Below are positions 4,044 through 48,572 of a stretch of 64,000 nt of DNA, one piece after another (position 1 is the stretch's first letter; every line of letters begins with the position of its first letter). Both the position numbers and the translations under genes were made by a program. A model generated the notes under the pieces. The model worked only from the letters and a program-made list of their open reading frames with translations. It was not told the DNA's origin and made no database searches. The stretch is from a virus (lineage: Duplodnaviria; Caudoviricetes): positions 32,001-96,000 of the IMG/VR virus record IMGVR_UViG_3300028886_000003. One strand, 5' to 3'.

Positions 4044-4048
4044 ATATA

Positions 4049-19039: not shown

Positions 19040-19139
19040 TGATGATACAAATGAAACTGAATATTTAATCGAAAAAGATGGTGAATGGGTAAAAATTACT
19101 GAAGATAAATATGAACAAATAAGAGGTAAAGTATGTTAG
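18987..19139 (+). CDS. Small overlapping gene (50 aa, MMQKNFKIK...GKVC), not in ORF track
   Basis: GAGG RBS at 18977-18980, ATG 18987, TAG 19137-19139; bridges two structural genes. Confidence 0.5.
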   Translation: MMQKNFKIKATQILQIHNDDTNETEYLIEKDGEWVKITEDKYEQIRGKVC

Positions 19140-19543
19140 AAAAATATATTACAGAAGAAGGTAAAAAACATTGGCTTAAATTAGGTTTTTTAACCGATGA
19201 TAATTCAAGTAACTTTAATTATGTAGCTCTAGGTGTTTCAGACAGTAGTGCAGCAATTAATAATGGACAAGGCTTTACAGAAGCTAATGGAAATGATTAT
19301 GCTCGTGTACAATTTGTAGAAGAAAATCAAATAGACAATACTGGAACATCAATTACACTTTCAGCTACTTTTGATAGTACAAACTTTAATCCATCTGAAC
19401 CAGTTACTATATCAGAGATAGGAATTGTTAATCAGGACATTGCAAATAACAATGATGTATTTTTTGCTTATATGAGTGTACCAACAATTGAAAAAAGCTC
19501 TAATGTTAGTCTTAAGTATACTGTAATCATTGGATTAGAATAG
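19133..19543 (+). CDS. Baseplate/tail-collar-like protein
   Basis: ITEEG...YVALG...ISEIGI motif pattern of phage baseplate/fibre attachment proteins. Confidence 0.6.
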   Translation: MLEKYITEEGKKHWLKLGFLTDDNSSNFNYVALGVSDSSAAINNGQGFTEANGNDYARVQFVEENQIDNTGTSITLSATFDSTNFNPSEPVTISEIGIVNQDIANNNDVFFAYMSVPTIEKSSNVSLKYTVIIGLE

Positions 19544-19553
19544 AGGTAATATT

Positions 19554-22500
19554 ATGCCATACTATAAACAAGTATTAGGAATTGAATCCACAAAACTTGC
19601 ACAGGCTGAACATATTAATTTAATACAAAGCCATGTGAATAATGCTTTTGTAGAATGCTTAAGTGATCTATTTGGGAATGGATGTATATTAGATGATGAT
19701 GAAGAAGCATTAAAAGTAACCCCTACACCATATCATATTGATGCATCTAATAAAAATTTTGAGAATGAAAATGATTATATTTCTTTTTATGACAGATATT
19801 TAAGACAAGAATTTGAAACAAATAAATCAGAAATACAATCTTTTAATTTAAAGATGCACAATACATCTAATCTTAAACCAACAATTTTTGCTGAAATAAG
19901 AGATACTGATATGAATTTTATTGCAGAAGCTCATACAGAACTCCCAATTACGACTGGTGAAACTGGACCAGCTGATGTTAAATTTATTTTTAACTTAAAA
20001 CATCAACCTACTAGTACATATTATTTCGTTCTAAGACCTATAGATATTAGTGCTACAGATTTTAATGATGTTAGCGAAACAATTGTTCCTGATATGTTTA
20101 CTGTTAAATTTGATAGATCTGGAAGTCTTAATCAAGGACTATATGCATCTTATAATGGTGTAGATTATTTGCAATCTAATATGCTTGATGATCAAGTAAC
20201 ATTAGATACAGGTGAATATTCAGTATCTTCAGATGTTAATTATGATTTATATTTTGAAGAAGTTTTTAGTAATGGTAACACATATACAATTGATAAAGCA
20301 ACATGTTTAGTTAATGGAGAAAAAGTAATGCCAATTGACACACATGTAGTTATTGATGGACCATCAAAAGGACATAATAGAATAGATTTAGTTACATTAG
20401 ATATAGAAGGACATTTCAATGTAACAGAAGGAGTACCTTTTATTGGTCAAGCAACAGAAGATAAATATCCTACTAATGATTTAGGATTAAAAGTTGCATA
20501 TATAACTACTTATGCTAATTCAGCTGATACATGGACATGTCCAAATTGTAATACTGTAAACGATGGAAATGTTTTAAGCTGTGTAGAATGTGATACAACA
20601 ACAAATAATAAAATTCCATTAATTGAGCAAAGTGATGAAAATGGTAAAACTAGACAAAGAGATTTAATGGAAAGAATTCGTAGACTTGAAAAAAAGGTGG
20701 ATTATCAAATTAAAAATAATACTCCATCTCGTGTCAAATACACTTGTGCTGTTGACCCAACAATTGCTACCGCTGGAGAAGTTGTTAGAACAGAAGATGG
20801 CGGTGAAATATTTGTAGCTGCAGAAGATAAATATAATATACAATATGAAACAAATGAAAATGGGGAAAATGTTGCTGTTTTCAGAGGAACAAATAGTGAA
20901 ACTTTTGCATGGTCAATTATTAAAGAAATTACAACAAAAAAGGTTAAAAAGGTTGAAGGAATGGCAAAAATGTCAACAACAGACATATCTATTCCGGCCA
21001 AAAAACCTAAAAAACCAAAAGATAGTCAATATTATACTCTAAATGTTAAACGTAGAGAAACAAAAACTATATACAAAAAACAAACAAGTGAAGATGGAGT
21101 TGAAAGAGATGATGTAACTTCATATTATACTTCAGCCTATAACATTCCTATTGATTTATATATTATAAAAATTGTTAAAAAAGAAGTAAAAAGTAAAAAT
21201 GCAAAAGATAAAAAAATTAAAGAAATTCAAGAAGAAAAAAAGATAGTAGAAAAAATTAAAAATAAAAGAACTAATGCAAACGGTAATATCAATATTGATT
21301 TATGGAATTATAAATTAAGTAAAGGAAAATATTACATGGTTGCAAAATATGATGATAAAAAATTAACTTCTGTTATCTATATTGATCAAGATGATGTTAA
21401 ACTAGAAAAAAGAGGTCCTATTGAAATTAAAATCTCAGAAAAACCTATAGAAAAAACTTCAGTTAATGTACAGGATAATGTTTTCACAGGTAATGATTCA
21501 TTTTATACTAAAAATATGAAAGTAGATGAAGATATTGGTGAAGTATCTATTGAAACATTAGACACTAGTAGTTTGAAAAAGGAAGATTGGATGAACATTC
21601 CTAAAGAAAAACAAACCAAAGATGCAAATGTTTCTAAAGCAAGTTTTAAAATTGATGCAACCAATACCTGTGAATATTGTATGTATAGTTTTGATGTCGA
21701 TCATGATTGTATTGCATATAATATAACTCCATTCCTTTATGCTTTTGAAAATATTAAAGCCTTTAAAATAGTTTTATTTGAAAATCCGAAAATATTTGAA
21801 ATTAACAATACAAGAACATCATATGAAAAATTTTTAGATAAAGATAAGGCAGAAAAAACAGTTTTCAAAAATTTATACGAATCAGATTGGATAAAAGTAA
21901 AAGGTGCTAGTAAAGATAGTAAAGTAAAAGTTTCTGAGAAAAAACAAACAACCTTTGATTTCGGCCAAGATGGAATATTACTTAAAAAAGGTGTATATAG
22001 TATAGTATTCATTGGAGCTCTATATAGTAAAAAGAAAGAAGGAAAAATCTATATTGAAGAATATCATACAAGTAAAGCAACAAAATATGGTGGTATTTCA
22101 TATGTATATGGTTCATACAATCCTAATAAAATTTATATTCAAAAAAATGGTTTAAGAAATAGAGCAATTATTTTTAAAATGAATAGAGCATTATTAACAC
22201 ACTATAGTTCAGGAACATTAGTTTCAAGAATAATAGAAACACAACATCAAATTTCATCATGTAAAATTAAACCTAATTATGAGATTCCTCCTGGCTGTGA
22301 TGTATTTACATATGTATCGAATAATGGGGGAAGAACGTATGTAGAAACAAAAGATAATAGTAATACTGTAACTTTTCCTGGCTTAGGAAGTCAATTTAGA
22401 TGGCGTATTACTTTTAATGGTACTGCATTAAAAACTCCTAAACTTAAATTTAATGGGAAATATGCTATTAAATTTGAATTATCAGAAAAAGAAAATTATA

Positions 22501-24689
22501 TTACATATGAAGATTATGGACGTTGTTTTGCTACACCTATATTAAATGCAAATACAATTACAAGATCAGTAGCATTAAATAACAATATAAAAAATAAATT
22601 TGCCGAATGGGAATTTGCTAGACTATGGATGGAAGATGAAGATCTAGCGTCCAATATGGATATATGTTTTGCTTATGATAATAAGAATTATGATACAACA
22701 GTAGAACATACACAAAAAGAATGGCCTAATAGTATTTTCTTTAGTCAAGTATTAGGAAACTTAACACTTGAAGATTTTGATCAAACTTCTATTGATTATA
22801 GTAATTATGATGCTGACACAGAACCTGATGAAAATAATTTCAGACTTAAATATGATACAGATATGGCAAATACAGGTGACATAATTGTAGCAACACCTTT
22901 GGCAAATGAGGATGGAGATAGGTATAATTATTCATATGGTAATATTAATGTAGAAAATAATGATATGGAGAATTTTACTTATTCTTTAACAAAAAACACA
23001 ACACTTTATAAAGATAATACAAATGATGTATCAAATAAATATAGTGGTGTACATTTGGTAACTGGTTCATATTATCAAGCGTTATATAATAAAACTACTA
23101 ATACAACAGAAAGTACAAAAAGAATATGGGCTAGTGATGGTGGAGATCCAACATATGATCCAGAGGCTTGTATTATTGGAGTTCAATATCAAAATGGATT
23201 AGAAATTACAGATAATTATACCTCATTAACTGTTGATATTTTTGCAAATTTACGTGACCATCTTGAACAGGTAGTAGCATCAACAACTACTACAACAAGT
23301 GAGGAAGGGGAACCGGAAAATTCAACATCTAATCCGGCTGATCAATTATCTGATATTGGTATATTACAATATGAAAATGGAGAACCTGTAATAAATACTA
23401 ACAGAACAATTGATCAAACAAAATATATGTATGAAGATAAGTGTTATTATATTCCACAAGGTACACTTGAGTTAGTTGTTTCATTAAATCCAAATGGATT
23501 GATTGAAGAAAATAATGCAACATATGGAAAAGTATATACTGTTGATATTCCAATTCGATCATGTAAACATACACCTTTTACTATTAATTTATCCGATCTA
23601 TATGGTAGTACTATATATAGTATAGGACTTCGTGTTAACAAAACAGTAGTAGAAAAAGCAGAAGATGGAGTATTAAAACATCCATCTTTACATGAAGGAG
23701 ATATATTAGCATTAGGTAACATATCCTTAAATGGAGAAAATATTAAACCATATACTCCTTATATTTATAGTGGTGATACAAATAGATGGAATTGGACTGC
23801 TTTAGATAAAACACAAGTATCAACTGCATATGTATTATATGAATCAGTTAAACCTGATAATACTGAGCCAAGAATGTCATATTTACCAATTTATAAATTA
23901 GGAGATCCAGCTGGAAAATATTCATATCCTTATCCTGGAACAGGAGATAATATACAATATTCAGATCCAGTATTCCACAATGGAACATTAAATTTATATG
24001 AACAAGATGGTACTGCATTAATTTTAAGAGAAAGTAATTTAGAACAAATTAGTGTAGATAAAGCTAGAGATTCAAATGAAATTAGTCTTTATTATCTAAA
24101 AGAAAATCAAGAAAGAGGTGATTTATTTAGGAAAAGCACAGAAAATGCAAACAGTATAATGTTCCATATTAATGTTAATGATTTTGCGCGTGGATCTTTA
24201 TTTAAAATCGATACTGATGTTAATTTAACACCATATGATTGGATTGAGGTTGAATATTATCTTGAGCATATAAAAGAAACAGAATCTGAAAGTAATGTTA
24301 TGAATGAATATAATATCTTAAAAGGAGAAGTATTTTTAGATTTATATGATACAGTTGACTATAAAAATGCAGAGCCAGTTGAACAGCTTCCATTGCCGGC
24401 ATGGGGTAAAACACAGAATAATTATAATCAATCAAATAAAACAGTTCATGCATGGTTTAAAATACATAGTGATGCTGCATCTGTAAAATGTATTGTTTTA
24501 AGAACAGAAAAATTAAATTGCAGAACACCTGCTGATTTACGTTTAGTTATTGCTGATATTGTATTCTTAAATACTGATACAGTGCCGGCTTTAGGACCAC
24601 AAATGCAAATGCGTATTTATCCAAAAAATGAAAGCGCATTAACTAATACAAAAATTAGAAAATTTGGTTGTGTATATAGATTGGGATGA
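19554..24689 (+). CDS. Large tail/baseplate protein (1711 aa) with RanBP2-type zinc finger
   Basis: RIDLV motif, RIRRLE coiled segment, WTCPNCNTVNDGNVLSCVEC. Confidence 0.55.
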   Translation: MPYYKQVLGIESTKLAQAEHINLIQSHVNNAFVECLSDLFGNGCILDDDEEALKVTPTPYHIDASNKNFENENDYISFYDRYLRQEFETNKSEIQSFNLKMHNTSNLKPTIFAEIRDTDMNFIAEAHTELPITTGETGPADVKFIFNLKHQPTSTYYFVLRPIDISATDFNDVSETIVPDMFTVKFDRSGSLNQGLYASYNGVDYLQSNMLDDQVTLDTGEYSVSSDVNYDLYFEEVFSNGNTYTIDKATCLVNGEKVMPIDTHVVIDGPSKGHNRIDLVTLDIEGHFNVTEGVPFIGQATEDKYPTNDLGLKVAYITTYANSADTWTCPNCNTVNDGNVLSCVECDTTTNNKIPLIEQSDENGKTRQRDLMERIRRLEKKVDYQIKNNTPSRVKYTCAVDPTIATAGEVVRTEDGGEIFVAAEDKYNIQYETNENGENVAVFRGTNSETFAWSIIKEITTKKVKKVEGMAKMSTTDISIPAKKPKKPKDSQYYTLNVKRRETKTIYKKQTSEDGVERDDVTSYYTSAYNIPIDLYIIKIVKKEVKSKNAKDKKIKEIQEEKKIVEKIKNKRTNANGNINIDLWNYKLSKGKYYMVAKYDDKKLTSVIYIDQDDVKLEKRGPIEIKISEKPIEKTSVNVQDNVFTGNDSFYTKNMKVDEDIGEVSIETLDTSSLKKEDWMNIPKEKQTKDANVSKASFKIDATNTCEYCMYSFDVDHDCIAYNITPFLYAFENIKAFKIVLFENPKIFEINNTRTSYEKFLDKDKAEKTVFKNLYESDWIKVKGASKDSKVKVSEKKQTTFDFGQDGILLKKGVYSIVFIGALYSKKKEGKIYIEEYHTSKATKYGGISYVYGSYNPNKIYIQKNGLRNRAIIFKMNRALLTHYSSGTLVSRIIETQHQISSCKIKPNYEIPPGCDVFTYVSNNGGRTYVETKDNSNTVTFPGLGSQFRWRITFNGTALKTPKLKFNGKYAIKFELSEKENYITYEDYGRCFATPILNANTITRSVALNNNIKNKFAEWEFARLWMEDEDLASNMDICFAYDNKNYDTTVEHTQKEWPNSIFFSQVLGNLTLEDFDQTSIDYSNYDADTEPDENNFRLKYDTDMANTGDIIVATPLANEDGDRYNYSYGNINVENNDMENFTYSLTKNTTLYKDNTNDVSNKYSGVHLVTGSYYQALYNKTTNTTESTKRIWASDGGDPTYDPEACIIGVQYQNGLEITDNYTSLTVDIFANLRDHLEQVVASTTTTTSEEGEPENSTSNPADQLSDIGILQYENGEPVINTNRTIDQTKYMYEDKCYYIPQGTLELVVSLNPNGLIEENNATYGKVYTVDIPIRSCKHTPFTINLSDLYGSTIYSIGLRVNKTVVEKAEDGVLKHPSLHEGDILALGNISLNGENIKPYTPYIYSGDTNRWNWTALDKTQVSTAYVLYESVKPDNTEPRMSYLPIYKLGDPAGKYSYPYPGTGDNIQYSDPVFHNGTLNLYEQDGTALILRESNLEQISVDKARDSNEISLYYLKENQERGDLFRKSTENANSIMFHINVNDFARGSLFKIDTDVNLTPYDWIEVEYYLEHIKETESESNVMNEYNILKGEVFLDLYDTVDYKNAEPVEQLPLPAWGKTQNNYNQSNKTVHAWFKIHSDAASVKCIVLRTEKLNCRTPADLRLVIADIVFLNTDTVPALGPQMQMRIYPKNESALTNTKIRKFGCVYRLG

Positions 24690-24693
24690 TAAA

Positions 24694-25032
24694 ATGGTAG
24701 AAGAAACAATTGAAATACAAACAGTAGATGAAGTACATCAGATTGATGAACGAAGACAAATGTCAGAAGTAATAGATAATCAAGCAGAAGAACACAATAC
24801 TAACTTAGAGAATATTAATAATCAATTAACTTCTATATCTGATACAATAGATAATATACAAATCGGTGATGTTGATTTAAGTGAAGTAACAGATAAAATT
24901 GATGAATTAGATACAACAATGATTACTACACAAAATCAAGATATACTTGAAACATTGTCTGCACAACAAAATCAAATAAATAGTATAGAAGATAAAATAG
25001 ATAATATCTTAAAAGTTATTAAAGAGATGTAA
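24694..25032 (+). CDS. Acidic coiled-coil protein
   Basis: Heptad pattern; ATG 24694 more likely than GTG 24664. Confidence 0.5.
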   Translation: MVEETIEIQTVDEVHQIDERRQMSEVIDNQAEEHNTNLENINNQLTSISDTIDNIQIGDVDLSEVTDKIDELDTTMITTQNQDILETLSAQQNQINSIEDKIDNILKVIKEM

Positions 25033-25034
25033 GT

Positions 25035-25628
25035 ATGGACAGAATTAAGGACGAAATACATGATATGTCTGAGAAGATATATGATCTACAGAATAAAACA
25101 GAGCACTTAACAAATGGACAAAGATATGCTGCTATTAATGAAATAGAAAAAAGTATTGCGCCCTTAAGAAATGACTTACATCATTTAGAACATAAACTAT
25201 ATAAACAGCAACATAATGAAGAGGAAATTGAAAAAGAAGTAAATCAAATATTAAGCCAAATTGCTGAACTTGAAAATTTAAAATCCGATCTTATAGCACG
25301 TATTAACACAGAAACAGAACACACACGTAAATACTATCATGATGAAGTTATGCAGTTTATGAAAAATGAGATTACACCATTGCATGATAGTGTTGTGAAG
25401 CATGAGCAGGAAATTGCTATTTTAAAATCAGATATAAAAAAAGAGTTTGCTCAATTTAGATTAGAACTTACTGAAGCAAATAAAAAAAGAGAAGTTGAGG
25501 ACGCCAAAAAATTTGATAAAATCAACATACTAATAGCTGGTTCAATAGGCGTTGTAGGCGGCCTCGGAACTCTTTTTATGTATTTTCAACCAGTATTACA
25601 AACTTTTGTGAAAATATTCTTTGGATAA
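25035..25628 (+). CDS. Coiled-coil protein with C-terminal transmembrane helix
   Basis: Heptads followed by ILIAGSIGVVGGLGTLFMYF. Confidence 0.55.
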   Translation: MDRIKDEIHDMSEKIYDLQNKTEHLTNGQRYAAINEIEKSIAPLRNDLHHLEHKLYKQQHNEEEIEKEVNQILSQIAELENLKSDLIARINTETEHTRKYYHDEVMQFMKNEITPLHDSVVKHEQEIAILKSDIKKEFAQFRLELTEANKKREVEDAKKFDKINILIAGSIGVVGGLGTLFMYFQPVLQTFVKIFFG

Positions 25629-25829
25629 TTATTTTAATGCCATTTTAATATCTTCAACTTTTACAGTTTCTCTACCAGCATGAGTAGCTAATCTTTTAGC
25701 TTTTTGAGTAATAGAAACACCTTCTGTTTCTAAAAATTCATTCAAGTATCTAACTGCATCTTCACTAATTCTGTTAGCTCCGGAATTTTTCATTAACCTT
25801 TTGGTTGGAGCAAATAATAATTCAGACAT
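25629..25829 (-). CDS. Archaeal histone (HMf/HMt family)
   Basis: MSEL..AP..R.MK.SGA.RIS.DA...HAGR.TVK.EDI..A matches the HMfB histone fold. Confidence 0.95.
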   Translation of the reverse strand: MSELLFAPTKRLMKNSGANRISEDAVRYLNEFLETEGVSITQKAKRLATHAGRETVKVEDIKMALK

Positions 25830-25900
25830 TTATATCAATCTCCCTAATTTTAATATGTTTATTTTATAATAAACACTCTAATATCTATTTATCAAAGTAT

Positions 25901-26341
25901 TTAAACTTTTGGTTCTATCCAAAATTTATTTTTCTTACATTGTTGAATAAAAAATTTATATTCTTCAAAAGTAAAATTATATTTACGTAAAAAAATAGGT
26001 AAATCATATAACAAATTATTAAAAACACCAGGAATATCATACATAGTTACACGTGTATTAACAACTTTATCATAATCAATACCCTCTATTTTAATATCAG
26101 AATATTGCTTTAATTTATTAATAATTGTTTCTTCGTAATGTTCATTACCTTTTTCATAAAAATATAAATTTTTTTGTTCTTTTGTACAATCTCTACAATA
26201 ATAAGACAAATTATCTTTATTATTTTTATTTTTACTAAATTTATTTAATGGTAAAACTCTACCACATATATTACACTTCTTCTTTTCCACCTTAATCACA
26301 ATAAAAAAATAAATAAGGGGAGTATTTAATGAACGTTCCAC
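25901..26341 (-). CDS. Zinc-finger protein
   Basis: CNIC...LPLNKF...YYCRDC phage zinc-finger motif; real start probably downstream of the called one. Confidence 0.55.
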   Translation of the reverse strand: MERSLNTPLIYFFIVIKVEKKKCNICGRVLPLNKFSKNKNNKDNLSYYCRDCTKEQKNLYFYEKGNEHYEETIINKLKQYSDIKIEGIDYDKVVNTRVTMYDIPGVFNNLLYDLPIFLRKYNFTFEEYKFFIQQCKKNKFWIEPKV

Positions 26342-26592
26342 ATTTTATAATAAAAATCAAATGGATAATAGTAACGATTAACAGTATAATAAGGATAGCG
26401 ATAATTATTTCTTTCTTTTTTATCTTCTTCCTTATCATCTGATTCAAATAAATCGCTAAAATCTTTCTTAATTTCTTTATTTTTCCTATGTTTAATCAAA
26501 AATTCACAAATTTTAATAATATCTTCCAATCTTTGAATTTCATAATCATCATTCAAATCGTCATTACAACAACAATGTCCATCACAATTCAT
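26326..26592 (-). CDS. Hypothetical protein
   Basis: ORF in overlapping operon. Confidence 0.5.
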   Translation of the reverse strand: MNCDGHCCCNDDLNDDYEIQRLEDIIKICEFLIKHRKNKEIKKDFSDLFESDDKEEDKKERNNYRYPYYTVNRYYYPFDFYYKMWNVH

Positions 26593-26828
26593 TTTTTTAC
26601 CTCATTATAACCTGCTAAAAGCTGTTCATTATCTTGCAACCAATTAATGACATATTGGAGATTAGAGATTTTTTCACTATCATATTCATCATTATTTATA
26701 ACACCAATTGCAAAACTATAAAATATTGATGAAGCTAATTTTTGATGATCTAATAATTGTTTATTTTTAGGTTGTAAAAATTCTTCTACAATTTCTAACA
26801 AAATTTGATCAATTTCTTCTTCTAACAT
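26589..26828 (-). CDS. Hypothetical protein
   Basis: ORF in operon. Confidence 0.5.
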   Translation of the reverse strand: MLEEEIDQILLEIVEEFLQPKNKQLLDHQKLASSIFYSFAIGVINNDEYDSEKISNLQYVINWLQDNEQLLAGYNEVKK

Positions 26829-26851
26829 AATAATACTTTAACCATAATTTT

Positions 26852-27067
26852 TTATCTTGAAAACCACGCTCTCATTCTTCTATGCGGCTTTCTTGACCCT
26901 GGTGAACAAAATGTTTGTATAATAGGATAATTTTGAACAATGGATTCAATATCAAAATTATAAACTAAAAGTAATGTTTCAATCTCTTCTTGACATATTT
27001 CAATTTCTTTCTGTAGTTTTTGATATTTTTGTAATTTCTCTAATAGTTGATTTTCATATTGATCCAT
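26852..27067 (-). CDS. Hypothetical protein
   Basis: ORF with GAGG RBS. Confidence 0.5.
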   Translation of the reverse strand: MDQYENQLLEKLQKYQKLQKEIEICQEEIETLLLVYNFDIESIVQNYPIIQTFCSPGSRKPHRRMRAWFSR

Positions 27068-27252
27068 TGAATAAACCTCGTATAAAATTTTAATTGTCTT
27101 TCATAATGCCGACAACATTCTTTTTCAATATGTAACTGCTCACAATAAGAGCAATAATATAATTTTGAAAAAAATTTTGATGGAACTTTATATCCATATT
27201 TGCATCGCCGACATTTCATATATATATTTTAGAAAATTATCATATATATACT

Positions 27253-27474
27253 TTAGATTTTTTCCACTTTTTTTGGTGTAAGCATCATCCAATAACGAGC
27301 ATGAAAATTACAATGACCTTCAAGTGAAGGGCCACCATAATGCCCAAAATCATAATAAGACTTATCCCAAGCAGAATGCTCATCTCTTTGTATTATAAAA
27401 GGAACTGGTTGCTTACGGCCATACAAATCTTTATCATGTAATATTTCTGGCCAAAATTTATAATGACAATCCAT
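27253..27474 (-). CDS. Small aromatic-rich protein, paralogue of 27829..28044
   Basis: VPFIIQRDEHSAWDKSYYDF vs VPYLIRNDGHGVWLRAWYLF. Confidence 0.6.
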   Translation of the reverse strand: MDCHYKFWPEILHDKDLYGRKQPVPFIIQRDEHSAWDKSYYDFGHYGGPSLEGHCNFHARYWMMLTPKKVEKI

Positions 27475-27477
27475 TTA

Positions 27478-27519
27478 TTAATCCTCCATAAAATCATCTA
27501 AAATAACTAATCTTTTTTT
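27478..27519 (-). pseudogene. Remnant 3' end of an HNH endonuclease gene
   Basis: Encodes LVILDDFMED*, matching LVTLDDFMEE* and IITLDDFMEE* of the intact HNH genes. Confidence 0.7.
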
Positions 27520-27520
27520 A

Positions 27521-27823
27521 TCATACATTCTTTTCAAAAGAATAAATTAAAGATATATAATGCCCTGCACTTACTACAATTCTTGAACAATCTATATCCA
27601 AATAATTATTAATATCTCTAATAACACCAAAAGGAATATTATTTGTTTGAAAAGTAACTGCTATCTCAACATCAGATAAATAATTATGAAAATCAATTTT
27701 ATATGAACCATGATCATTAAAATATTTTATTTCATATTTTTTAATAATAGCTTCAATACCATTTTTTACTATATCATATTTTGAAAAACCATTCACTAAT
27801 TCTTTTACATTTTTATTTTTCAT
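27521..27823 (-). CDS. Hypothetical protein
   Basis: ORF with GGTGA RBS before MKNKN. Confidence 0.5.
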   Translation of the reverse strand: MKNKNVKELVNGFSKYDIVKNGIEAIIKKYEIKYFNDHGSYKIDFHNYLSDVEIAVTFQTNNIPFGVIRDINNYLDIDCSRIVVSAGHYISLIYSFEKNV

Positions 27824-27828
27824 TTTTA

Positions 27829-28044
27829 TCACCTAAAAAAATATTGACCACCTGTTCTAAAAAAATTATCTTTAAATAAATACCAAGCCCTTAACCATAC
27901 ACCATGCCCATCATTCCGTATAAGATAAGGTACACAAGCTCGTTTTTCCTCAGGGTCAAAACCCCCATATTTAATTTTTGTTTTATAAGATGCACAATGT
28001 TTTGTTGGACATCTGTATACATAAGTATTCCAATCTATACTCAT
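27829..28044 (-). CDS. Small aromatic/Cys protein, paralogue of 27253..27474
   Basis: Shared VP(Y/F)xI.xDxHxxW motif. Confidence 0.6.
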   Translation of the reverse strand: MSIDWNTYVYRCPTKHCASYKTKIKYGGFDPEEKRACVPYLIRNDGHGVWLRAWYLFKDNFFRTGGQYFFR

Positions 28045-28049
28045 ATTTA

Positions 28050-28922
28050 CTACTCCTCCATAAAATCATCCAAAGTAATTATGCCTTCTTTCCATTCTTC
28101 CACAAATTTCCAAAATTGCTCTTCAGTATTATCTCCATAACCATGCTTTTGATGAAAAGCATCATGTAATTCTTCACAAATAACAACAACATTATCCAAA
28201 TCAATCCTACCTTCAACACACCAGTTATAACCATTTAAATGATGAACAACTAAATTATTAGTTTTTTTACCAGTAATTTCACATTTACCATTAGCCCTTT
28301 CACGTGCTGGTATAAATAAATCTAAAAAATAACTACCCTGATCAAAACATTCTAATTCCCTTTGAACAAGAAATGGTGGTACAAAACTTTTTAAATCTTC
28401 AATAGATATATCATATTTTTTAGATAATTCTTTATACACTTGTTCATATCTTTTTTTTTGATATTCTTTTTGATGTTCTATTATTTTTTCTTTATTATTT
28501 TGATAATATTGTCTTTTTTGTTTTTTTATTTTTTCTTTATTGTCTTGATAATATTGTTTTATTTTTTCTTTATTATCTTGACAATATTGTTTTTGATGTT
28601 CTTTTATTTTTTCTTTATTTTTTTGATAATATCGTCTATTCTGTTCTTTTATTTTTTCTTTATTATCTTGTTTATATTGTCTATTCTGTTCTTTTATTTT
28701 TTCTTTATTATTTTGATAATATTGTTTAAAATATTTTTTATTTTTTTGATAATATTGTCTATTCTGTTCTTTTATTTTTTCTTTATTATCTTGACAATAT
28801 TGTCTATTCCGTTCTTTCATTTTTTCTTTATTATTTTCTTCACTACATTCTTTAGAACAAGTAATAGTATTTCCTTTTGCATCAAATTCTTTACCACAAA
28901 TTACACAATTCTTTACCACCAT
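28050..28922 (-). CDS. HNH endonuclease with N-terminal Zn finger and 15-aa helical repeats
   Basis: CVICG...TCSKEC; (QYYQDNKEKIKEQNR)n; CEITG...VVHHL...NVVVICEELHDAFH. Confidence 0.85.
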   Translation of the reverse strand: MVVKNCVICGKEFDAKGNTITCSKECSEENNKEKMKERNRQYCQDNKEKIKEQNRQYYQKNKKYFKQYYQNNKEKIKEQNRQYKQDNKEKIKEQNRRYYQKNKEKIKEHQKQYCQDNKEKIKQYYQDNKEKIKKQKRQYYQNNKEKIIEHQKEYQKKRYEQVYKELSKKYDISIEDLKSFVPPFLVQRELECFDQGSYFLDLFIPARERANGKCEITGKKTNNLVVHHLNGYNWCVEGRIDLDNVVVICEELHDAFHQKHGYGDNTEEQFWKFVEEWKEGIITLDDFMEE

Positions 28923-28937
28923 AAAAACATCACCTTA

Positions 28938-29912
28938 TTACTCTTCCATAAAATCATCTAAAGTAACTAATCCTTTTTCCCATTCTTCAACAAATTTCCA
29001 AAATTGCTCTTCAGTATTATCTCCATAACCATATTTATTATGAAATGCAATATGCAATTCTTCACAAATAACAACAACATTATCTAAGTCCATTCTACCT
29101 TCAACACACCAGTTATAACCATTTAAATGGTGAACAACTAAATTCTTAGTTTTTTTACCAGTAATTTCGCATTTGCCATTAGCTCTTTCATGTGCTGGTA
29201 TAAACAAATCTAAAAAATAACTACCCTGATCAAAACAGTCCAGTTCTCTTTTAACAATAAATAGTGGCAAATAAACTTTTAAATCTTCAATAGATATATC
29301 ATATTTTTTAGATAATTCTTTATACACTTGCTCATATTTTTCTTTTTGATATTCTATTTGATATTCTATTATTTTTTCTCTATTATTTTGATAATATTCT
29401 TTTACTTTTTCTTTATTTTTTTGATAATACTGTCTTCTTCGCTCTCTTTCTTTTTCTTTATTATCTTGATAATACTGTCTTCTTTGTTTATTTATTTTTT
29501 CTCTATTTTCTTGACGATATCGTCTGCTTTGTTCTTTTAGTTTTTCTTTATTTTTTTGACGATATTGTCTACTTCGTTCTCTTTCTTTTTCTTTATTATC
29601 TTGATAATACTGTCTTCTTTGTTCATTTATTTTTTCTTTATTATCTTGACGATATTGTCTTTGATATTCTTTTACTTTTTCTTTATTATCTTGATAATAC
29701 TGTCTTTGATATTCTCTTTGATATTCTTTTACTGTTTCTTTATTTTTTTGATAATACTGTCTTCGATATTCATTTACTTTTTCTTTATTATTTTGACGAT
29801 ATTGTTTTCGATTTTGCTGTCTTCTTTTTATACTACATTTTTTAGAACAAGTAATAGCATTTCCTTTTGCATCAAATTCTTCACCACAAACTACACAATT
29901 TTTCATCACCAT
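28938..29912 (-). CDS. HNH endonuclease paralogue with more repeats
   Basis: Same architecture; near-identical HNH domain. Confidence 0.85.
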   Translation of the reverse strand: MVMKNCVVCGEEFDAKGNAITCSKKCSIKRRQQNRKQYRQNNKEKVNEYRRQYYQKNKETVKEYQREYQRQYYQDNKEKVKEYQRQYRQDNKEKINEQRRQYYQDNKEKERERSRQYRQKNKEKLKEQSRRYRQENREKINKQRRQYYQDNKEKERERRRQYYQKNKEKVKEYYQNNREKIIEYQIEYQKEKYEQVYKELSKKYDISIEDLKVYLPLFIVKRELDCFDQGSYFLDLFIPAHERANGKCEITGKKTKNLVVHHLNGYNWCVEGRMDLDNVVVICEELHIAFHNKYGYGDNTEEQFWKFVEEWEKGLVTLDDFMEE

Positions 29913-29924
29913 AAAAACATCACC

Positions 29925-39802: not shown

Positions 39803-41237
39803 TTAATGACACCTCCTTGTCATAAAAGCTATTTAAAATATATTTAATTACATTTACTGTAAAAGCATTTCCCATACATTTATATCTTTGTGCATCAGAT
39901 ATTTCTTTACCATCAGCACCTATTTTTGTCCAATCATCAGGAAAAGCTTGTAAACGTTCAACTTCTACTGGAATTAACCTTCTAACTTTGAAATTATCAT
40001 CTATAGTGCCCCAATTACCTGAACATGTTAAAGCACCGATGCCTTTTGATTGTGTCCTACCCCTACCTGTAGCAGAACCAGGATGATCTAAACGTACACC
40101 ATCACCAGGATAAACTTCATCATATCCTTTTTTAGTAGCAGTTGCAATTTTTAATGACTTAGGAACTTTATATAATCCAGTTTTTGCTCCCCATCCACCA
40201 CCAAGTGCTGATTGAGTACAACTTACACCATTAGGATCTAAAATTCTTGTACCCTGTGATGATTCAGTATTAACTTTGTGCATTTCTATTTCTTGTATAA
40301 GAATATCACCACTTGCTGTAATTGTTGGAGAAATTCCTGTATCTTTATATGCTCTTTTACTTTGATCAAATACTCCTTCACGAATTTCGAATTCAGTTAA
40401 TGATTTATCAAATTCAGTTGTGTGAATATCTAATAATTCTTTTAATTTGTACCAAATTTCAGGTGTTGGAATTGCAAAACTATTATCTCTTCTGAAATAA
40501 TGTGCAGCCTGTGTAGATGGAACACCTAATTTTTCTGCAATTTGTTCGATGGTATAAGGAGATGATCTTTTCTTTTCATATATCTCCTGTTGCAAACCTT
40601 TAATATCAACTTGATGAACCCTTGCTTTAATTTTACGATTAATAATTTCACGTTGCATACGCACATCATGATCAACATCAGTTCCCATTATCAAATCTGC
40701 TGATGTAAGAGAAATATCAGGTAATTCACCATATTCTTTCAATACCCCTCTAATATATATTCTCTCACGATTCTGAGGGACACCAAAATCCTTACTGTTT
40801 AAAACATCCCAACGAACTTGGTAACCTAATTCTAATAAATTATTAATAATAACTCTAAAAGTATTACCTTTGTCGTGTGATATAAGATTTTTAACATTTT
40901 CTAATAGAAAATATCTTGGCTTTTTTTCTTTTAATATTCTAGCAATATCAAAAAATATAGTACCCCTTGTGTCATTAAAACCTTTTTGTTTACCTGCTAA
41001 AGAAAAGGCTTGACAAGGGAATCCTGCAATTAACATATCAAAATCTTCTAATTCTTTTGCATTAATTTGAGTTAAATCACCTAAATTTTTATGATCAGGA
41101 AAATGTAACTGATAAATATTATCAGCATATTTATCAATTTCTGAATAACCTATTAATTCATAATTAAATTCAGAATAATCTAATGCTAATTCTGCTCCAC
41201 CAACACCACTACAAAGTGATAATACTTTAAGCACCAT
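39780..41237 (-). CDS. dcm: DNA (cytosine-5) methyltransferase with enlarged TRD region and HTH insertion
   Basis: LCSGVGG, GFPCQ, ENV, QNRER; IEQIAEKLGV...HYF HTH; ERLQ.FP, GNAF. Confidence 0.9.
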   Translation of the reverse strand: MVLKVLSLCSGVGGAELALDYSEFNYELIGYSEIDKYADNIYQLHFPDHKNLGDLTQINAKELEDFDMLIAGFPCQAFSLAGKQKGFNDTRGTIFFDIARILKEKKPRYFLLENVKNLISHDKGNTFRVIINNLLELGYQVRWDVLNSKDFGVPQNRERIYIRGVLKEYGELPDISLTSADLIMGTDVDHDVRMQREIINRKIKARVHQVDIKGLQQEIYEKKRSSPYTIEQIAEKLGVPSTQAAHYFRRDNSFAIPTPEIWYKLKELLDIHTTEFDKSLTEFEIREGVFDQSKRAYKDTGISPTITASGDILIQEIEMHKVNTESSQGTRILDPNGVSCTQSALGGGWGAKTGLYKVPKSLKIATATKKGYDEVYPGDGVRLDHPGSATGRGRTQSKGIGALTCSGNWGTIDDNFKVRRLIPVEVERLQAFPDDWTKIGADGKEISDAQRYKCMGNAFTVNVIKYILNSFYDKEVSLNDNGENN

Positions 41238-41511
41238 TTTTATGCCTCATTAATTTTTCCACTTGTTCATCTGTTAAATAATATTTATCATCTACATCAT
41301 CTTCCATAATATCAGCAAGAATTGACACAGAATTAGATATTTTATTTTTCTTTCTTACAATAAAATAACCTTCTTTTGTACTATATCCTCTGACTGGACT
41401 AAAACCTAATGTTTTACGATTAACATATTCAATAGAAGTACATAAAAATTCATCTTCACAAACATATACTCCATCTTTTTTCTTTTTCCATTCTTTACCA
41501 TTATATTCCAT
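41227..41511 (-). CDS. Small methyltransferase-associated protein
   Basis: C-terminal LADIMEDDVDDKYYLT resembles a segment normally inside C5-MTases. Confidence 0.5.
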   Translation of the reverse strand: MEYNGKEWKKKKDGVYVCEDEFLCTSIEYVNRKTLGFSPVRGYSTKEGYFIVRKKNKISNSVSILADIMEDDVDDKYYLTDEQVEKLMRHKNGA

Positions 41512-41519
41512 TTGACCAC

Positions 41520-43262
41520 CTATTCTTCATCTGTAACTGGTATATCATCGAATGCCCCAGCCCAAACTAAATTTTCTTTAATTCTTTTATTACATTTTCT
41601 TGGAGGAACTCTCGCACAAAAATCATCAAAACTAGTGAAATCACCATTAGCAGTTCTTTCTTCAATTATAGCTTCAGAAGATTTAACTGACATACTATCA
41701 ACCAAATCAAAACCCATATAAATATTATTATCATCTATATATGTATGTAATCTTGATTTATTAACGTTAGGATTACATAATTGTGCTTCAGAATCTTTAA
41801 TCATTTGTAATATTTCAACACGTTTTTCACTTTCATCTACATGTATTAACATTGCAACTGCAAATTCTAAAGGATAATATGTTTTCAACCAAGCTGATTG
41901 ATACCCCAAAGCTGCATATCCAACTGCGTGAGATCTGTTAAATGAATAATCTGATGATTTTTCCATGTTACTCCATAGTTCATTTGCTACTTTTTCATCA
42001 ACATTATTTTTCTTACAACCACTAAGAAAATCTTTTTTTGATTTGTCAAATTCTTGTTTTTTCTTCTTAGAAATTGCTCTACGCAAATGATCTGTTTCTA
42101 AATCAGACATCCCTGCTAATTCTCTTGCAACAGCCATAATATCTTCTTGAAAAATCATTAATCCTTGTGTTTTACCCAATATTGTTTTTAATCTTTCATC
42201 AAGGTAGACTGGTTTTTTTCTACCAAATTTATAATCAGCATATTGCTGGTCCATTCCATTGTTTCTAGCACCTGGTCTAATTAATGATATTGTTGCAACC
42301 ATTTCATTAAAATTAGATGGTTGAATTAAACTAACAGCTTGACGTCCAGCACCTTTTTCTAATTGAAATATTCCTAATGGATCTTTACAAATAGTTTCAA
42401 AAACTTTTGGATCATCAAAATCATATGGTAGTTTAACATTTGGATCATCAATAATTTTTAAGCAATCTCTTTGTATATCTAATACTTTAACTGATAATGT
42501 ATCATTTTTAAGAAAACCTTGGCTCTCACACTCAACACCTGTGTTTGCAATAATTGTATTGCCTTTTAATTTAATTACAGATGTATAATTCCATAATGGT
42601 TTATCGAATATAATAACAGCACCAGGATGTTTTCCATATGCTTTTAATAATCCAATCATATCTTCAAGATTATCTCTAACAAATGGATTTCTTTGCAAAA
42701 ATGCTTGAACAGCTTCATTATCTTTATAATCTTCATCATCCGCAAGTTGTAGTGTAATTTTATTAATTTCATCAAAATTACCACCACTCATTCTTGTAAG
42801 TGCTTTTAGTGCCATTTTAGGTGAATATGGTATACGTGTAGATACTTGTGCACAATATTCTTGCCCAAATTCATCAATAATAAGAGATATTACTTCATCT
42901 CTCATATCAGAACTTACATCTGTATCTATATCAGGTAATGATGTCATGGCTCTTGTTTCGTTTAAAAATCTAGCAAAAGATAAATCATGTTCTTTTGGTG
43001 GAATTTTTGTGATATTTAAACCATAACAAATTACAGAAGCTAAACATGATCCTCTTGCTGGACCTCTAAATATTCCTGCGTCATCTATAAGAGCACAAAT
43101 ATATGCTGTTTGCAAGAAGAAATCTTCTAATTTAGTTTTTTCAATAACTTTTAATTCTTCTTCTAATTGATTCTGATACCATTCATCATCATAAACACCT
43201 TTATGCTGCAAACCTTGTATTGCTAAATCTTTCATAAAAGCAAAATTATCTTGAACATTCAT
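41520..43262 (-). CDS. dnaE: DNA polymerase III alpha (family C), catalytic palm/fingers/HhH part
   Basis: GPARGS, FARFLN, PDIDTD, KHPGAV, K.D.L, GIFQ, RPG, IFQE, FNRSH..Y, LK.YYP. Confidence 0.92.
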   Translation of the reverse strand: MNVQDNFAFMKDLAIQGLQHKGVYDDEWYQNQLEEELKVIEKTKLEDFFLQTAYICALIDDAGIFRGPARGSCLASVICYGLNITKIPPKEHDLSFARFLNETRAMTSLPDIDTDVSSDMRDEVISLIIDEFGQEYCAQVSTRIPYSPKMALKALTRMSGGNFDEINKITLQLADDEDYKDNEAVQAFLQRNPFVRDNLEDMIGLLKAYGKHPGAVIIFDKPLWNYTSVIKLKGNTIIANTGVECESQGFLKNDTLSVKVLDIQRDCLKIIDDPNVKLPYDFDDPKVFETICKDPLGIFQLEKGAGRQAVSLIQPSNFNEMVATISLIRPGARNNGMDQQYADYKFGRKKPVYLDERLKTILGKTQGLMIFQEDIMAVARELAGMSDLETDHLRRAISKKKKQEFDKSKKDFLSGCKKNNVDEKVANELWSNMEKSSDYSFNRSHAVGYAALGYQSAWLKTYYPLEFAVAMLIHVDESEKRVEILQMIKDSEAQLCNPNVNKSRLHTYIDDNNIYMGFDLVDSMSVKSSEAIIEERTANGDFTSFDDFCARVPPRKCNKRIKENLVWAGAFDDIPVTDEE

Positions 43263-43263
43263 A

Positions 43264-44214
43264 TTACCTTCTCCTTGGTTCTTTTAAGAATATTTTTTTC
43301 AATTGCTGATGTTTTGTAAAAGTTGGTAATACTCTTTTTTTACCTATATTATTGATTGATGTAACATTACATTTGTCTGCAATTATTGATGTATTTTTAA
43401 TCATTGTATCAACCAATGGTAAATCTTCAAAACCTGATTGTTCAGCAAATTGTTTAACTAATTTAGATGTACCTAAGCAATTACTTGGTAAACTTGGTGT
43501 TACATCATTTTTTTGCTTATGAAACATATCTGCTTGTAAATGACGTCTAGTATTCCTATCACTAATAAAATGTGCATCTGTAGTGGCAACACAATATTTC
43601 ATATCAATATCAGAATATAAATCTAATAGTTTACTATTAATTGTTTTTTGTGGAGGATATGCTGGGTGGAATTGAAATTCTGCCGCAACATTTTCTTTTC
43701 CAAAAACATCTAAAAGTTTATTTAAGAATGGTTCAGCTTCATGAGGAAAATGATTTTTATTGTCTGGATTAAAACATTGACCTATTGTACCTAATGAACA
43801 AGCTGTAGATATAAATAAACCTTCAGGATTATCAAATAATATTGGATATGGTAATAATGGCCTACGATAAAAATATTTTGCAGTTGATAAATATTCTAAC
43901 TTGGATAAATTTTTAGCTCCTTCATCATCCTTTGCTAAAACAACAAGATGGTATCTATTGTTATCTTGTGGTTTATCGGTTGATGGTGTGCAATAAAATT
44001 CGCATCCAAAAATTGGCTTAACATTAGTGTCCTGCCCTAATAAAAAAAACTGACTCCAACCTACTATATTACCATGATCTGTAATTGCTACCGCTTTTTG
44101 ATTATTTTTTTGAACTTCATAAAATAATTCAGGGATTTTTATTGTTGCATCTCCTTGGCTATAATCCGTATGAAGATGCAAATTAACAAAATTATCTTTT
44201 TCCATATTAATCAC
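43264..44214 (-). CDS. dnaE: PHP domain of DNA polymerase III alpha (separate gene)
   Basis: LHLHTDYS..D, AITDHG, KPIFGCE, HLVVLAK, TACSLG, TDAHF. Confidence 0.9.
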   Translation of the reverse strand: MINMEKDNFVNLHLHTDYSQGDATIKIPELFYEVQKNNQKAVAITDHGNIVGWSQFFLLGQDTNVKPIFGCEFYCTPSTDKPQDNNRYHLVVLAKDDEGAKNLSKLEYLSTAKYFYRRPLLPYPILFDNPEGLFISTACSLGTIGQCFNPDNKNHFPHEAEPFLNKLLDVFGKENVAAEFQFHPAYPPQKTINSKLLDLYSDIDMKYCVATTDAHFISDRNTRRHLQADMFHKQKNDVTPSLPSNCLGTSKLVKQFAEQSGFEDLPLVDTMIKNTSIIADKCNVTSINNIGKKRVLPTFTKHQQLKKIFLKEPRRR

Positions 44215-44468
44215 TTTAAATCATATTGTGAAAAACCAATAAGAAAATTAGGTGGAATTGATAATATTCTTGAAGCCTCAGGGATCTCTATCATACATGG
44301 GGCTTCAGTAATATCGGTTTTATATAAAATACCATATCTACCTTCTTTTTCGTATTGGCAATTACGAGCTTGTACTTTACGAAGAATTAAAGTATCAGTG
44401 TTTTCTTCGTATGTAAGCATAATATTAGCTAGTCTATTTATCACCTTTCTCTTCCTCTTTTTTATCAT
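44211..44468 (-). CDS. Hypothetical protein
   Basis: ORF in replication operon. Confidence 0.45.
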   Translation of the reverse strand: MIKKRKRKVINRLANIMLTYEENTDTLILRKVQARNCQYEKEGRYGILYKTDITEAPCMIEIPEASRILSIPPNFLIGFSQYDLK

Positions 44469-45327
44469 TAGGGAATAATATTTGACTTAATTCAGATGGT
44501 GTAGATACTATATCTTGTGTTTTTAAATTTCTAGTTAAAAACACAAAACTCTTGCCTTCTGTTGTTAAATCAGATCTATTTTTCACAATTGTTGCAGTAT
44601 AATCATCAATATTATCTTTTTCAATTTTATCTAAAAGTATCCTTACTGAACACTCATCAATAAATCTTTGTTTAACATTTGCAAAATTATCAGGATCTTC
44701 ACATATTTCAGGAATAAAATCTTCATGAGATACAAAAATTACTGGAACTGGTAACAACATAAAAGGTGAAGAGGAATCTCTAAATGCTTTATTTCTAATT
44801 TTCCATAAATTAAAGCTTACACCATCTGCTACTCCAATATTTTCTTCTAATCTCATAAAAGCCTCACAGTATTCAAGTATGAAGCTAATACCATCAACAA
44901 TGACGCCTTTAATTTTCCTACCAGCATCTAATTCGTCTTGAATCACACTTGCAATAGTACCGATCATATAAATAGTTTCTTCTTCATCTCTAACTGTTGC
45001 ACTATCTTTTTCTCTTTCACGTGTAGGATTAGGGCTATATACAAAAATTTGATCACTATATTCACTAAAAATATCTGTTACAATTTCTAATCCTGAATGA
45101 TCAACATCAATATAGACAATTGATTCATCTTTTTTAAGATTTTCAGTTAATAATGCTAAAGATAATGAAGATTTTGCTGTATCATTTTTTCCTGAAATCA
45201 AAATTTTTTTATTAACTTTATCTTTCTCAATATTAAAAATCTCTTTTTTAATTTGATCTTTTAATGATGTTTTTGATTGCCTTGTTTTGCCTCCAGCATT
45301 TCCTTTAGGTTGGTTAAAACCTACCAT
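44434..45327 (-). CDS. AAA_24/RecA-like ATPase (Sak4-like recombination protein)
   Basis: Degenerate Walker A GKNDTAKS, YIDVD, Walker B VIVDG, FVSH, KNR. Confidence 0.7.
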   Translation of the reverse strand: MVGFNQPKGNAGGKTRQSKTSLKDQIKKEIFNIEKDKVNKKILISGKNDTAKSSLSLALLTENLKKDESIVYIDVDHSGLEIVTDIFSEYSDQIFVYSPNPTREREKDSATVRDEEETIYMIGTIASVIQDELDAGRKIKGVIVDGISFILEYCEAFMRLEENIGVADGVSFNLWKIRNKAFRDSSSPFMLLPVPVIFVSHEDFIPEICEDPDNFANVKQRFIDECSVRILLDKIEKDNIDDYTATIVKNRSDLTTEGKSFVFLTRNLKTQDIVSTPSELSQILFPNDKKEEEKGDK

Positions 45328-45429
45328 GTTTTTGCCTCCAATTGTTTTATAAAAAGTAATAAATTAACTCTACATCTACTATCTTGAATTTTATCTAAAT
45401 CAAGATATAATTGATCTATTAAACTCATT

Positions 45430-45654
45430 TTAGTTTTGCTCTCCTTCTGAGCTGTTTCCTTGTAAAACAAATGTTCTTTCGACAAGATCGTCCACCACTT
45501 TTTCCATCTCTTCCTCAATAATTGCTTTTGACACAAAATGGTCAACACGTTTATAATCAGCCTCTAATTTCATAATCCGAAGCTTTATATCTTCTGTTCT
45601 TTGTGAAAAAAGAGAAAAAGGATTATTAAGTAAATCCTTTTTATACTTCTTCAT
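45430..45654 (-). CDS. Hypothetical protein
   Basis: ORF in operon. Confidence 0.45.
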   Translation of the reverse strand: MKKYKKDLLNNPFSLFSQRTEDIKLRIMKLEADYKRVDHFVSKAIIEEEMEKVVDDLVERTFVLQGNSSEGEQN

Positions 45655-46750
45655 TATTATTATCTCCGAAAAATGCAGAAAGATCTACATCATCTTGGAC
45701 TTGTAAAAATCCACCTAAATGCCATCCAATCTTTTCTTCACCAGTAGTTTTGTCTTTATATTTATAAGATTGTAAACAAGCTATTCCAGTTGCACCTACA
45801 GAAATCGCAAGCCCTTTAATATGTGATGGGTGAAGATATGATGTAATAGTACTAACTTCATTTGTAGTATGATCAGTAAATTCAATTACCACACCAACGT
45901 TCTCATATATTGTTTTTGGTGTAGTTATATCTGATATTACACAAGGAATACAGCAGAAATCATATTGGTAATCTTTTGGATTTTTTATTGAAGAATGCTC
46001 AAAAGCAAAATCATATAAATCCATTTCTGTAGCTACTTGCTCTATTAATATTTTACCATTTTTATCAGTAAATGCTTTATTCCAATCATCTAAAATAATT
46101 GCTATTTCCTCTTCGGAATATGGTGCTTTATGAACTTCATCTATTGCACCGGCATTATACCACATCATTTTGTCCTTAGAATATTTGAAATTTTTTCTAG
46201 GACTTTTTCCAACCCTTGCAGATATTGCTCCATATTGGCAAACAGGAATAGTATCTTCAACTCTATCCTCACTAATAGCAAAATATTTTACTTTGATGGT
46301 TTCTTCACCATCTTTATTTTTTTCATAAAGATATCCTACTGCACCACCATTTGCTTTAGGGTCGAGGATTCTTTGACCTGTTTTAGCACCATAACGATAA
46401 ACTGGATTTCCTTCCTTGTCGACAAATTTCTTTTTATATGCTTCTTCTTGTCCAACTTTTGATAATTGATTCATTGAAGCATTGTATTGATCTCTGTCAA
46501 ATGCGAAATCACGAAAACGGAAAACTAACATACCATTTTCTGCATTTAACATATTTCTAGCTAACATTCTCATTGAACCACGAGCTCTTCTCAATGATCT
46601 TATGCGACGTGCATCATCGCTTTCAAAATCATCAGGATTAAGTTCTTGGTATATTTCTTCGGCTTTACGTTCTAACATTTCTGCTGAAAGATTATGATCT
46701 TCAGCAAATTTTTTATTTATCTCTATCTCATTATCAATTATAGAATTCAT
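45641..46750 (-). CDS. Putative single-stranded DNA-binding/replication protein
   Basis: First gene of replication operon near Sak4-like ATPase; acidic/aromatic tail DDVDLSAFFG. Confidence 0.35.
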   Translation of the reverse strand: MNSIIDNEIEINKKFAEDHNLSAEMLERKAEEIYQELNPDDFESDDARRIRSLRRARGSMRMLARNMLNAENGMLVFRFRDFAFDRDQYNASMNQLSKVGQEEAYKKKFVDKEGNPVYRYGAKTGQRILDPKANGGAVGYLYEKNKDGEETIKVKYFAISEDRVEDTIPVCQYGAISARVGKSPRKNFKYSKDKMMWYNAGAIDEVHKAPYSEEEIAIILDDWNKAFTDKNGKILIEQVATEMDLYDFAFEHSSIKNPKDYQYDFCCIPCVISDITTPKTIYENVGVVIEFTDHTTNEVSTITSYLHPSHIKGLAISVGATGIACLQSYKYKDKTTGEEKIGWHLGGFLQVQDDVDLSAFFGDNNNEEV

Positions 46751-48004: not shown

Positions 48005-48164
48005 AATAATCAGTATAAAAAATAAGCCCCGAATTGAATCCCCAGAAAAAATTACACCAACACATTATTATTGCTTTACCGCAAACGAGGCTTATTATAG
48101 TGTAATCTTGAAGTTAATAAGACTATATGTCTTTGCGGTTGCAAAGGAAGAATATATCTTCCAA

Positions 48165-48570: not shown

Positions 48571-48572
48571 TA

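Follow-up and report, generated by a model that had tools for sequence, protein, structure and literature searches.

A tailed virus of methanogens encodes a long-resident HMf-type histone with glutamate in place of the RKT lysine of loop L2

The window studied here (the whole stretch of DNA analysed, 64,000 nt, bases 32001-96000 of a 145,330-bp IMG/VR record) carries at 25629-25829 of its minus strand an intact full-length gene for an HMf-type archaeal histone, in which the lysine of the RKT motif in loop L2 (HMfB K53) is replaced by glutamate. Archaeal histones in tailed viruses are a kind already known; new here is a syntenic viral clade of otherwise canonical nucleosomal histones that lack the RKT lysine, a position at which mutation has altered histone behaviour in experiments. 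Methanogen DNA is mostly coated with histones, so that viruses replicating there must cope with host chromatin, and we know of no account of how they deal with it. The viral histone provides a naturally selected handle, in that its structural residues are kept, a lysine invariant in the host-family histones examined is absent, and laboratory mutants at this position exist (HMfB K53E, K53R and K53T); moreover, it is these hosts that are chiefly responsible for methane production in the rumen and human gut. Judging from the sequence comparisons below, we tentatively favour, at a little under an even chance, a virus-adapted, weaker-binding histone that would act within the infected cell and not in the capsid.

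The open reading frame runs uninterrupted through 66 codons from the ATG at 25829-25827 to the TAA at 25631-25629. Residues 7-65 of its product matched Pfam PF00808 (CBFD_NFYB_HMF) with an E-value of 2.2e-14 and 53.9 bits (cut-off, 21.4 bits), and the protein aligned end to end with the PDB sequences of HPhA (1KU5, E 1.4e-16), HMfA and HMfB. An AlphaFold2 model, calculated from a 10-row alignment, reached a mean pLDDT of 95 with predicted helices alpha1, alpha2 and alpha3 at residues 6-15, 23-50 and 58-65, and Foldseek gave TM-scores of 0.88-0.92 against 1KU5, 1HTA, 5T5K and 1A7W. The tail-less alpha1-L1-alpha2-L2-alpha3 fold with its long alpha2 is thus present by Pfam, AlphaFold2 and Foldseek. 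In the viral numbering, which is that of HMfB plus one (viral R11 is HMfB R10), the counterparts of HMfB R10, K13, G16, R19, L46, H49, R52, T54 and D59 are all kept. These include the alpha1 anchors R11 and K14, the L1 sprocket arginine in R20-I21, and the RxTxxxxD motif formed by R53, T55 and D60 (the R52-D59 clamp plus the L2 threonine), which is invariant in the 94 cellular histones aligned here (the 80 best hits, one genome per species, and 14 paralogues from three Methanobacteriaceae genomes). The tetramer interface and stacking glycine are likewise kept by sequence (L47, H50, D60, M63 and G17), and the methionine at viral position 63 (HMfB L62) is the residue of 11 of the 94 host histones as well. 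The full HMf-type fold with R10, R19, H49, R52, T54 and D59, which the initial annotation had described from the letters, was therefore recovered, at viral R11, R20, H50, R53, T55 and D60.

Table 1. Features of the histone locus in the window, and damaged histone alleles in related contigs
Feature	Position	Strand	Basis or detail
Viral histone gene, 66 aa, nucleosomal HMf type	25629..25829	-	ORF, Pfam, PDB, AF2, Foldseek
E54 codon GAA, equivalent to HMfB K53 in the RKT motif of loop L2	25668..25670	-	Sequence
Coiled-coil protein, 197 aa, C-terminal hydrophobic segment; last gene of the rightward structural block, convergent	25035..25628	+	ORF
Shine-Dalgarno-like GGGAG, 10 nt 5' of the histone ATG; putative function	25840..25844	-	Sequence
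14-bp AT-rich hairpin between the Zn-ribbon and histone genes	25870..25903	-	RNA fold, -12.5 kcal/mol, z -3.6
Zn-ribbon protein (CxxC...CxxC) upstream of the histone; weak Stc1-like match	25901..26341	-	Pfam E 7e-5, under cut-off
Leftward replication and nucleotide-metabolism array, with the histone as its last gene	26326..46750	-	Pfam
L004 allele	L004 399-605		TGA at codon 4; intact allele of the same lineage in L244
L128 allele	L128 699-848		In-frame 54-bp (18-codon) deletion, half of alpha2 gone
L129 allele	L129 422-601		3' half swapped for unrelated DNA by rearrangement

Loop L2 of solved histones reads RKTVK or RKTIK, and that of the viral histone R-E-T-V-K. As had been noted at the outset, E54 (GAA, 25670-25668) aligns with the lysine of the solved histones, and a basic residue after the L2 arginine is absent. 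K53 was found in all 94 aligned cellular histones and, in an unbiased search with PF00808 through 14 Methanobrevibacter and Methanosphaera genomes, in all 41 paralogues with a complete L2 loop, divergent capstone-like ones included; since the two sets overlap by 14 loci, they comprise fewer than 135 distinct histones together. Across 301 sampled Methanobacteriaceae genomes, no histone ORF contained AGRET[VIM], and the DNA pattern GCNGGNMGNGARACNRTN hit mostly AGY serine codons, with none of its 28 hits in a histone after translation. Similarly, none of 62 hits of the DNA pattern GCNGGTAGASAAACTGT in IMG/VR fell in a histone. Among the nearest 150 representatives taken from an exhaustive HMMER search of 1.84 billion proteins (global cluster representatives), the residue after the L2 arginine was K in 114 and E in 4 of 152 motifs. 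The initial annotation would have lost its point if host histones commonly carried E at this position; they carry K throughout both cellular sets, and by alignment the K53-to-E change is genuine and highly unusual. One cellular archaeal histone, P0045 (L212, 2434-2649), contains YAGRETV and thus E at the K53 position, and its gene lies in a cellular neighbourhood, adjoining genes of a dihydroorotase-type amidohydrolase, AMMECR1 and an aminotransferase. E53 therefore occurs, rarely, outside viruses.

The position of the RKT lysine has been described as that of a strongly conserved DNA-binding Lys/Arg (PMC11390915), residues 10, 19, 53 and 54 are the largest contributors to DNA binding (PMC7776873), and in HMfB K53 forms an inter-monomer salt bridge with E18 (PMC8775648). 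[quoted passage not shown] For HMfB K53E, modelling predicts weaker DNA binding. As this mutant failed to accumulate, the viral substitution may cost stability instead of tuning binding.

Both partners of the HMfB bridge are changed in the viral histone, to N19 and E54. Because K53 is also one half of the E18 salt bridge, the substitution does more than remove a phosphate contact, and because position 18 is N, E54 faces no second acidic residue; from the sequence it is plausible that this N explains why E54 is tolerated. A simple swap of the E18-K53 salt bridge proved useful only in part as an explanation, since host position 18 is mostly Q (53/94) and the bridge is thus no host feature. Similarly, a swapped stacking salt bridge (K30-E61 in HMfB, E31-K62 in the viral histone) was rejected as a virus-only stacking device, given that Methanobacteriaceae histones already have E30 in 73 and K61 in 68 of the 94 cases.

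K53 is absent from every close relative of the viral histone, which have Q in L002/L003, L004/L244 and L128 and E in the window and L130. Q is the likelier ancestral state of the clade at this position, with E reached by one further base change. In two sister lineages K56 is replaced by M; together with the step from Q53 to E in the lineage of the window, this makes two distinct changes in the clade that remove positive charge from L2. Several other positions hold residues that no more than 3% of the 94 cellular histones share, namely P4 (L or Q), I8 (T), T27 (Y), A29 (N), D/E38 (S) and R/K48 (T or A), and K25 is replaced by V; compared with cellular histones, P4, I8, R/K48 and K25 are replaced by residues present in 0-3% of the set. 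Since the whole close clade lacks K53 and has also lost P4, R/K48 and K25 (and K56 in some sisters), the change was no single event. Nevertheless, the net charge of the viral histone is +3, the same as in host histones, and weaker binding is for this reason something that we infer. In addition, the clade has K or R at the position of G9, next to R10, and given this basic residue the affinity may be redistributed instead of reduced.

These features bear on a serious alternative, which we regard as unlikely, that the protein is an ordinary competent DNA-wrapping histone that coats or protects replicating viral DNA or joins the host pool, with K53E/Q compensated and of no functional consequence. 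It would account well for the retention of the arginine anchors, the R-T pair, the R-D clamp, the tetramer interface and G16, for a net charge like that of the hosts with a basic residue at the G9 position, and for purifying selection on the gene. It also agrees with the RKT motif kept in L005 (an 84.7-kb IMG/VR contig) and in six other viral histones on five contigs, so that viruses use canonical histones too. It sits poorly, however, with the invariance of K53 in both cellular sets, where even the divergent capstone-like paralogues retain it, with the lowered gel shift of HMfB K53R and the failure of K53E and K53T to accumulate, and with the loss of several further basic DNA-facing positions in the clade. 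Were this reading right, the RKT lysine would be dispensable in the right background (N at position 18), which would be useful for histone biophysics.

Homologue searches with the viral histone returned few sequences, 2 matches in a word-based search and 0 in a single-protein scan of viral contigs. The order Zn-ribbon gene, histone and convergent coiled-coil gene recurs at approximately 75% nucleotide identity in short contigs from cattle rumen and animal gut metagenomes (L002/L003, L004, L128, L129, L130 and L244), and four related viruses have a histone at the same position. The Zn-ribbon gene upstream of the histone is syntenic in L004, L128, L129, L130, L244 and L005, and the convergent coiled-coil gene in L002, L003, L128, L130 and L005. 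The L005 contig, from a more distant relative, is colinear with the window from ~38,200 down to 25,400, about 13 kb, at 40-75% protein identity, and its histone, 66 aa long and at the same spot, is 43% identical to that of the window and has the canonical RKTV. In a phylogenetic tree, the close clade of the window received an SH-aLRT of 99 on a stem of 1.15 substitutions/site within an unresolved Methanobacteriaceae polytomy, compared with ~0.02 substitutions/site for host histone tips. A single origin of this clade and L005, by one ancient capture as against two, was not rejected (AU p 0.46), with 67 columns too few for proof. The gene has a GC content of 29.9% and a GC3 of 13%, which are virus-like (host histone genes, 38-40%), and pairwise dN/dS among the viral histones was 0.25-0.34, with dN below dS (Fisher p 5e-5 and 1e-3). 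Synteny, long stem, virus-like GC and dN/dS together indicate an old, maintained viral gene that has evolved far faster than its cellular homologues. Thus, the gene is a long-resident, selectively maintained one and not a recent pickup; it goes back to an ancient capture of a Methanobacteriaceae-type nucleosomal histone, and its base composition has since drifted to that of the virus.

Seven distinct alleles were found in the clade, of which three are damaged (Table 1); all three come from low-coverage contigs of 0.7-1.5 kb, where assembly errors are possible. The damage suggests that part of the population can do without the gene, and, carried further, that the gene may be a passenger under relaxed constraint on its way to loss, with the odd residues reflecting drift. 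The histone also evolves at least as fast as its neighbours (62% identity, compared with 79% for the Zn-ribbon gene, between the window and L004), its stem branch is long, and K53E destabilised HMfB, all as expected of such a passenger. We nevertheless consider this improbable, because dN/dS is significantly below 1, alleles are intact in four diverged lineages (window, L130, L002/L003 and L244), and the position is retained among viruses that share only 40-75% identity in their other proteins; furthermore, the structural core residues are all intact, the AlphaFold2 model is confident, and the damaged copies may be assembly products.

The initial annotation had called the gene virus-encoded, and this is established by an IMG/VR record that is complete, ends in terminal repeats and has genes for terminase, portal, capsid, sheath and baseplate J. 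CheckV estimated 100% completeness, the termini form an exact 116-bp direct terminal repeat, and the GC content is 28.4%. Outside the window lie the terminase large subunit (PHROG 2, E 4e-36), the portal, an HK97-like major capsid protein, the tail sheath and a baseplate J/wedge protein, and the rightward block of the window (1-25628) contains giant fibre-like ORFs and a protein with a pseudomurein-binding repeat. The record thus represents the whole 145-kb genome of a tailed, myovirus-like virus whose hosts are pseudomurein-walled methanogens (Methanobacteriaceae), and the histone is the only one in it. Pseudomurein binding, low GC, rumen/gut relatives and the best cellular matches of the viral histone, which are Methanobrevibacter histones at 59% identity, point to a Methanobacteriaceae host, most likely a Methanobrevibacter of the rumen or gut. 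When window 19000-38999 was compared by BLAST with the 301 Methanobacteriaceae genomes, the matches listed included no spacer-type host match and were all of gene homology (the histone at ~70% nucleotide identity, a methylase and NrdD).

The histone gene abuts the last gene of the structural block with zero gap, exactly as first described, the TAA of the plus-strand ORF occupying 25626-25628 and the histone stop codon 25629-25631. This adjacency and the analogy to giant-virus histones are all that would favour a virion protein condensing the genome in the capsid, as in Marseilleviridae, a reading to which we give hardly any credence. The histone lies on the strand of the replication genes, convergent with the structural genes, and the virus has a terminase large subunit, a portal and an HK97-type capsid. 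Terminase-portal viruses thread naked DNA through the portal to near-crystalline density. Packaging of the viral genome with the histone, which the initial annotation had entertained, is accordingly unlikely for a virus that fills its head through terminase and portal.

The leftward array (26326..46750), which is colinear with L005, contains genes for NrdD, dCTP deaminase, an ERCC4-HhH nuclease, two C5 DNA methylases, a Cas4-like nuclease and a split family C polymerase. On the reading that we favour, the viral histone would be produced in the infected cell together with these replication genes, and would dimerise with itself and probably also with the very abundant host histones. DNA would be bound via the conserved arginines and main-chain contacts, though the electrostatic hold at each L1-L2 site would be weaker. 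Histones on replicating viral DNA would then sit more loosely and be evicted more easily, to the benefit of transcription, replication and the stripping of DNA before terminase packaging.

As to the dominant-negative role raised in the initial annotation, a heterodimer with a Methanobrevibacter histone was modelled with an ipSAE of 0.55 (best control, 0.00), which counts as weak support. Of 80 solved complexes 58 attained this mark, as did 2 of 110 mismatched pairs; values of at most 0.60 occurred in only 7 of the 80 and in both mismatches. Three runs agreed in at least 91% of contacts with a partner pLDDT of at least 77, but the model may mirror solved histone dimers, and we rest no claim on it. 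Such pairing is the starting point of another reading, rather unlikely in our estimate, in which the viral histone would be a poison subunit that co-folds with host histones, leaves one crippled L1-L2 site per mixed dimer and destabilises hypernucleosomes, so that the viral genome, and perhaps the host chromosome, is kept open for transcription, replication and terminase packaging. This would be the first case in which an archaeal virus manipulates the chromatin of its host by imitating the host histone. Either weaker binding or hypernucleosome poisoning, if true, would mean that archaeal viruses tune chromatin as eukaryotic viruses do, and would provide archaeal chromatin research with a natural separation-of-function allele.

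Compared with known histones, the viral protein most resembles HMfA/HMfB, HPhA, HTkA and the Methanobrevibacter and Methanobacterium histones, with the same length, no tails, a TM-score of 0.9 and 48-59% identity. It shares with archaeal nucleosomal histones the R10/K13/R19 anchors, the R52-T54-D59 motif, the L46/H49/D59/L62 tetramer interface and G16, and differs from them in being virus-encoded, in having E for the RKT lysine and in evolving far faster. The capstone paralogues of Methanosphaera stadtmanae and Methanobrevibacter smithii (Stevens et al. 2020, PMC7776873) are comparable as variants that possibly co-assemble with canonical histones, and in that one or a few substitutions at structurally sensitive sites could shift chromatin stability. 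In capstones, however, the substitutions lie at the dimer-dimer interface (residue 49 and neighbours) and block oligomer extension, whereas the viral histone is changed at the DNA-facing L2 and keeps H50, D60 and L47, with no residue 49-type interface substitution. Position 49 is I or V in some host paralogues (KIAKRKTV type), which are distinct from the viral histone.

HMf-like histones in IMG/VR 4 Caudoviricetes with predicted Methanobacteriota hosts were catalogued in 2025 (hLife, PMC13681535), and ours is of the same kind, a single-fold archaeal-type histone in the genome of a tailed virus predicted to infect Methanobacteriota. That survey reported the class without residue-level analysis or function; our six other viral copies keep RKT and the window clade does not. 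Methanocaldococcus fervens tailed virus 1 has an unannotated histone ORF too. The histones of Nucleocytoviricota (Marseilleviridae and Medusavirus doublets and singlets) are likewise virus-encoded histone-fold DNA-binding proteins, but they are eukaryote-like H2A/H2B/H3/H4, are packaged in virions and form nucleosome-like particles, whereas ours is an archaeal-type singlet in a terminase-packaging tailed virus.

Two viral contigs carried further histone-like genes. On L211 (IMGVR_UViG_3300013794_000014), a 141-kb contig in which no similarity to the window virus was detected elsewhere, a 74-aa histone-like ORF at ~3841-4062 keeps HAGRKTVKAED and has N at the L1 sprocket arginine. On L208 (IMGVR_UViG_3300045988_184099), a 52-kb contig, two tandem HMf-type histone genes were found at ~3716-4198, one of them closely like a Methanosphaera paralogue (L095), and the site may be a provirus edge or host DNA.

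Around the histone start, an alignment showed GGAGG in the relatives at the Shine-Dalgarno-like site. The hairpin of Table 1 lies directly past the Zn-ribbon stop and ~40 nt 5' of the histone ATG, and may be a terminator, a processing site or an operator; inverted repeats at this site in three relatives are different and individually non-significant. A scan for sigma-70 promoter-like sites gave 12 (9.4 expected) and one for intrinsic terminators gave 0, both being uninformative for an archaeal virus. Farther along the leftward strand, the ORF at 28050-28922 (-) has no Pfam match, and its 28400-28800 segment has ~70% nucleotide matches in many Methanobacteriaceae genomes, often several per genome; it could be a shared mobile or repeated gene. 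Compared with L244, window ~27500-30500 contains ~3 kb of accessory genes that are missing there, the end of NrdD in L244 being followed almost directly by the small-ORF array. The family C DNA polymerase, a bacterial type unusual in an archaeal virus, is encoded at 41520-44214 (-) by a stand-alone PHP gene and a polymerase-core gene, and six tRNA genes (Tyr, Gln, Ser, Arg, Trp and Leu) are clustered in the leftward block at 48164-50979 (-).
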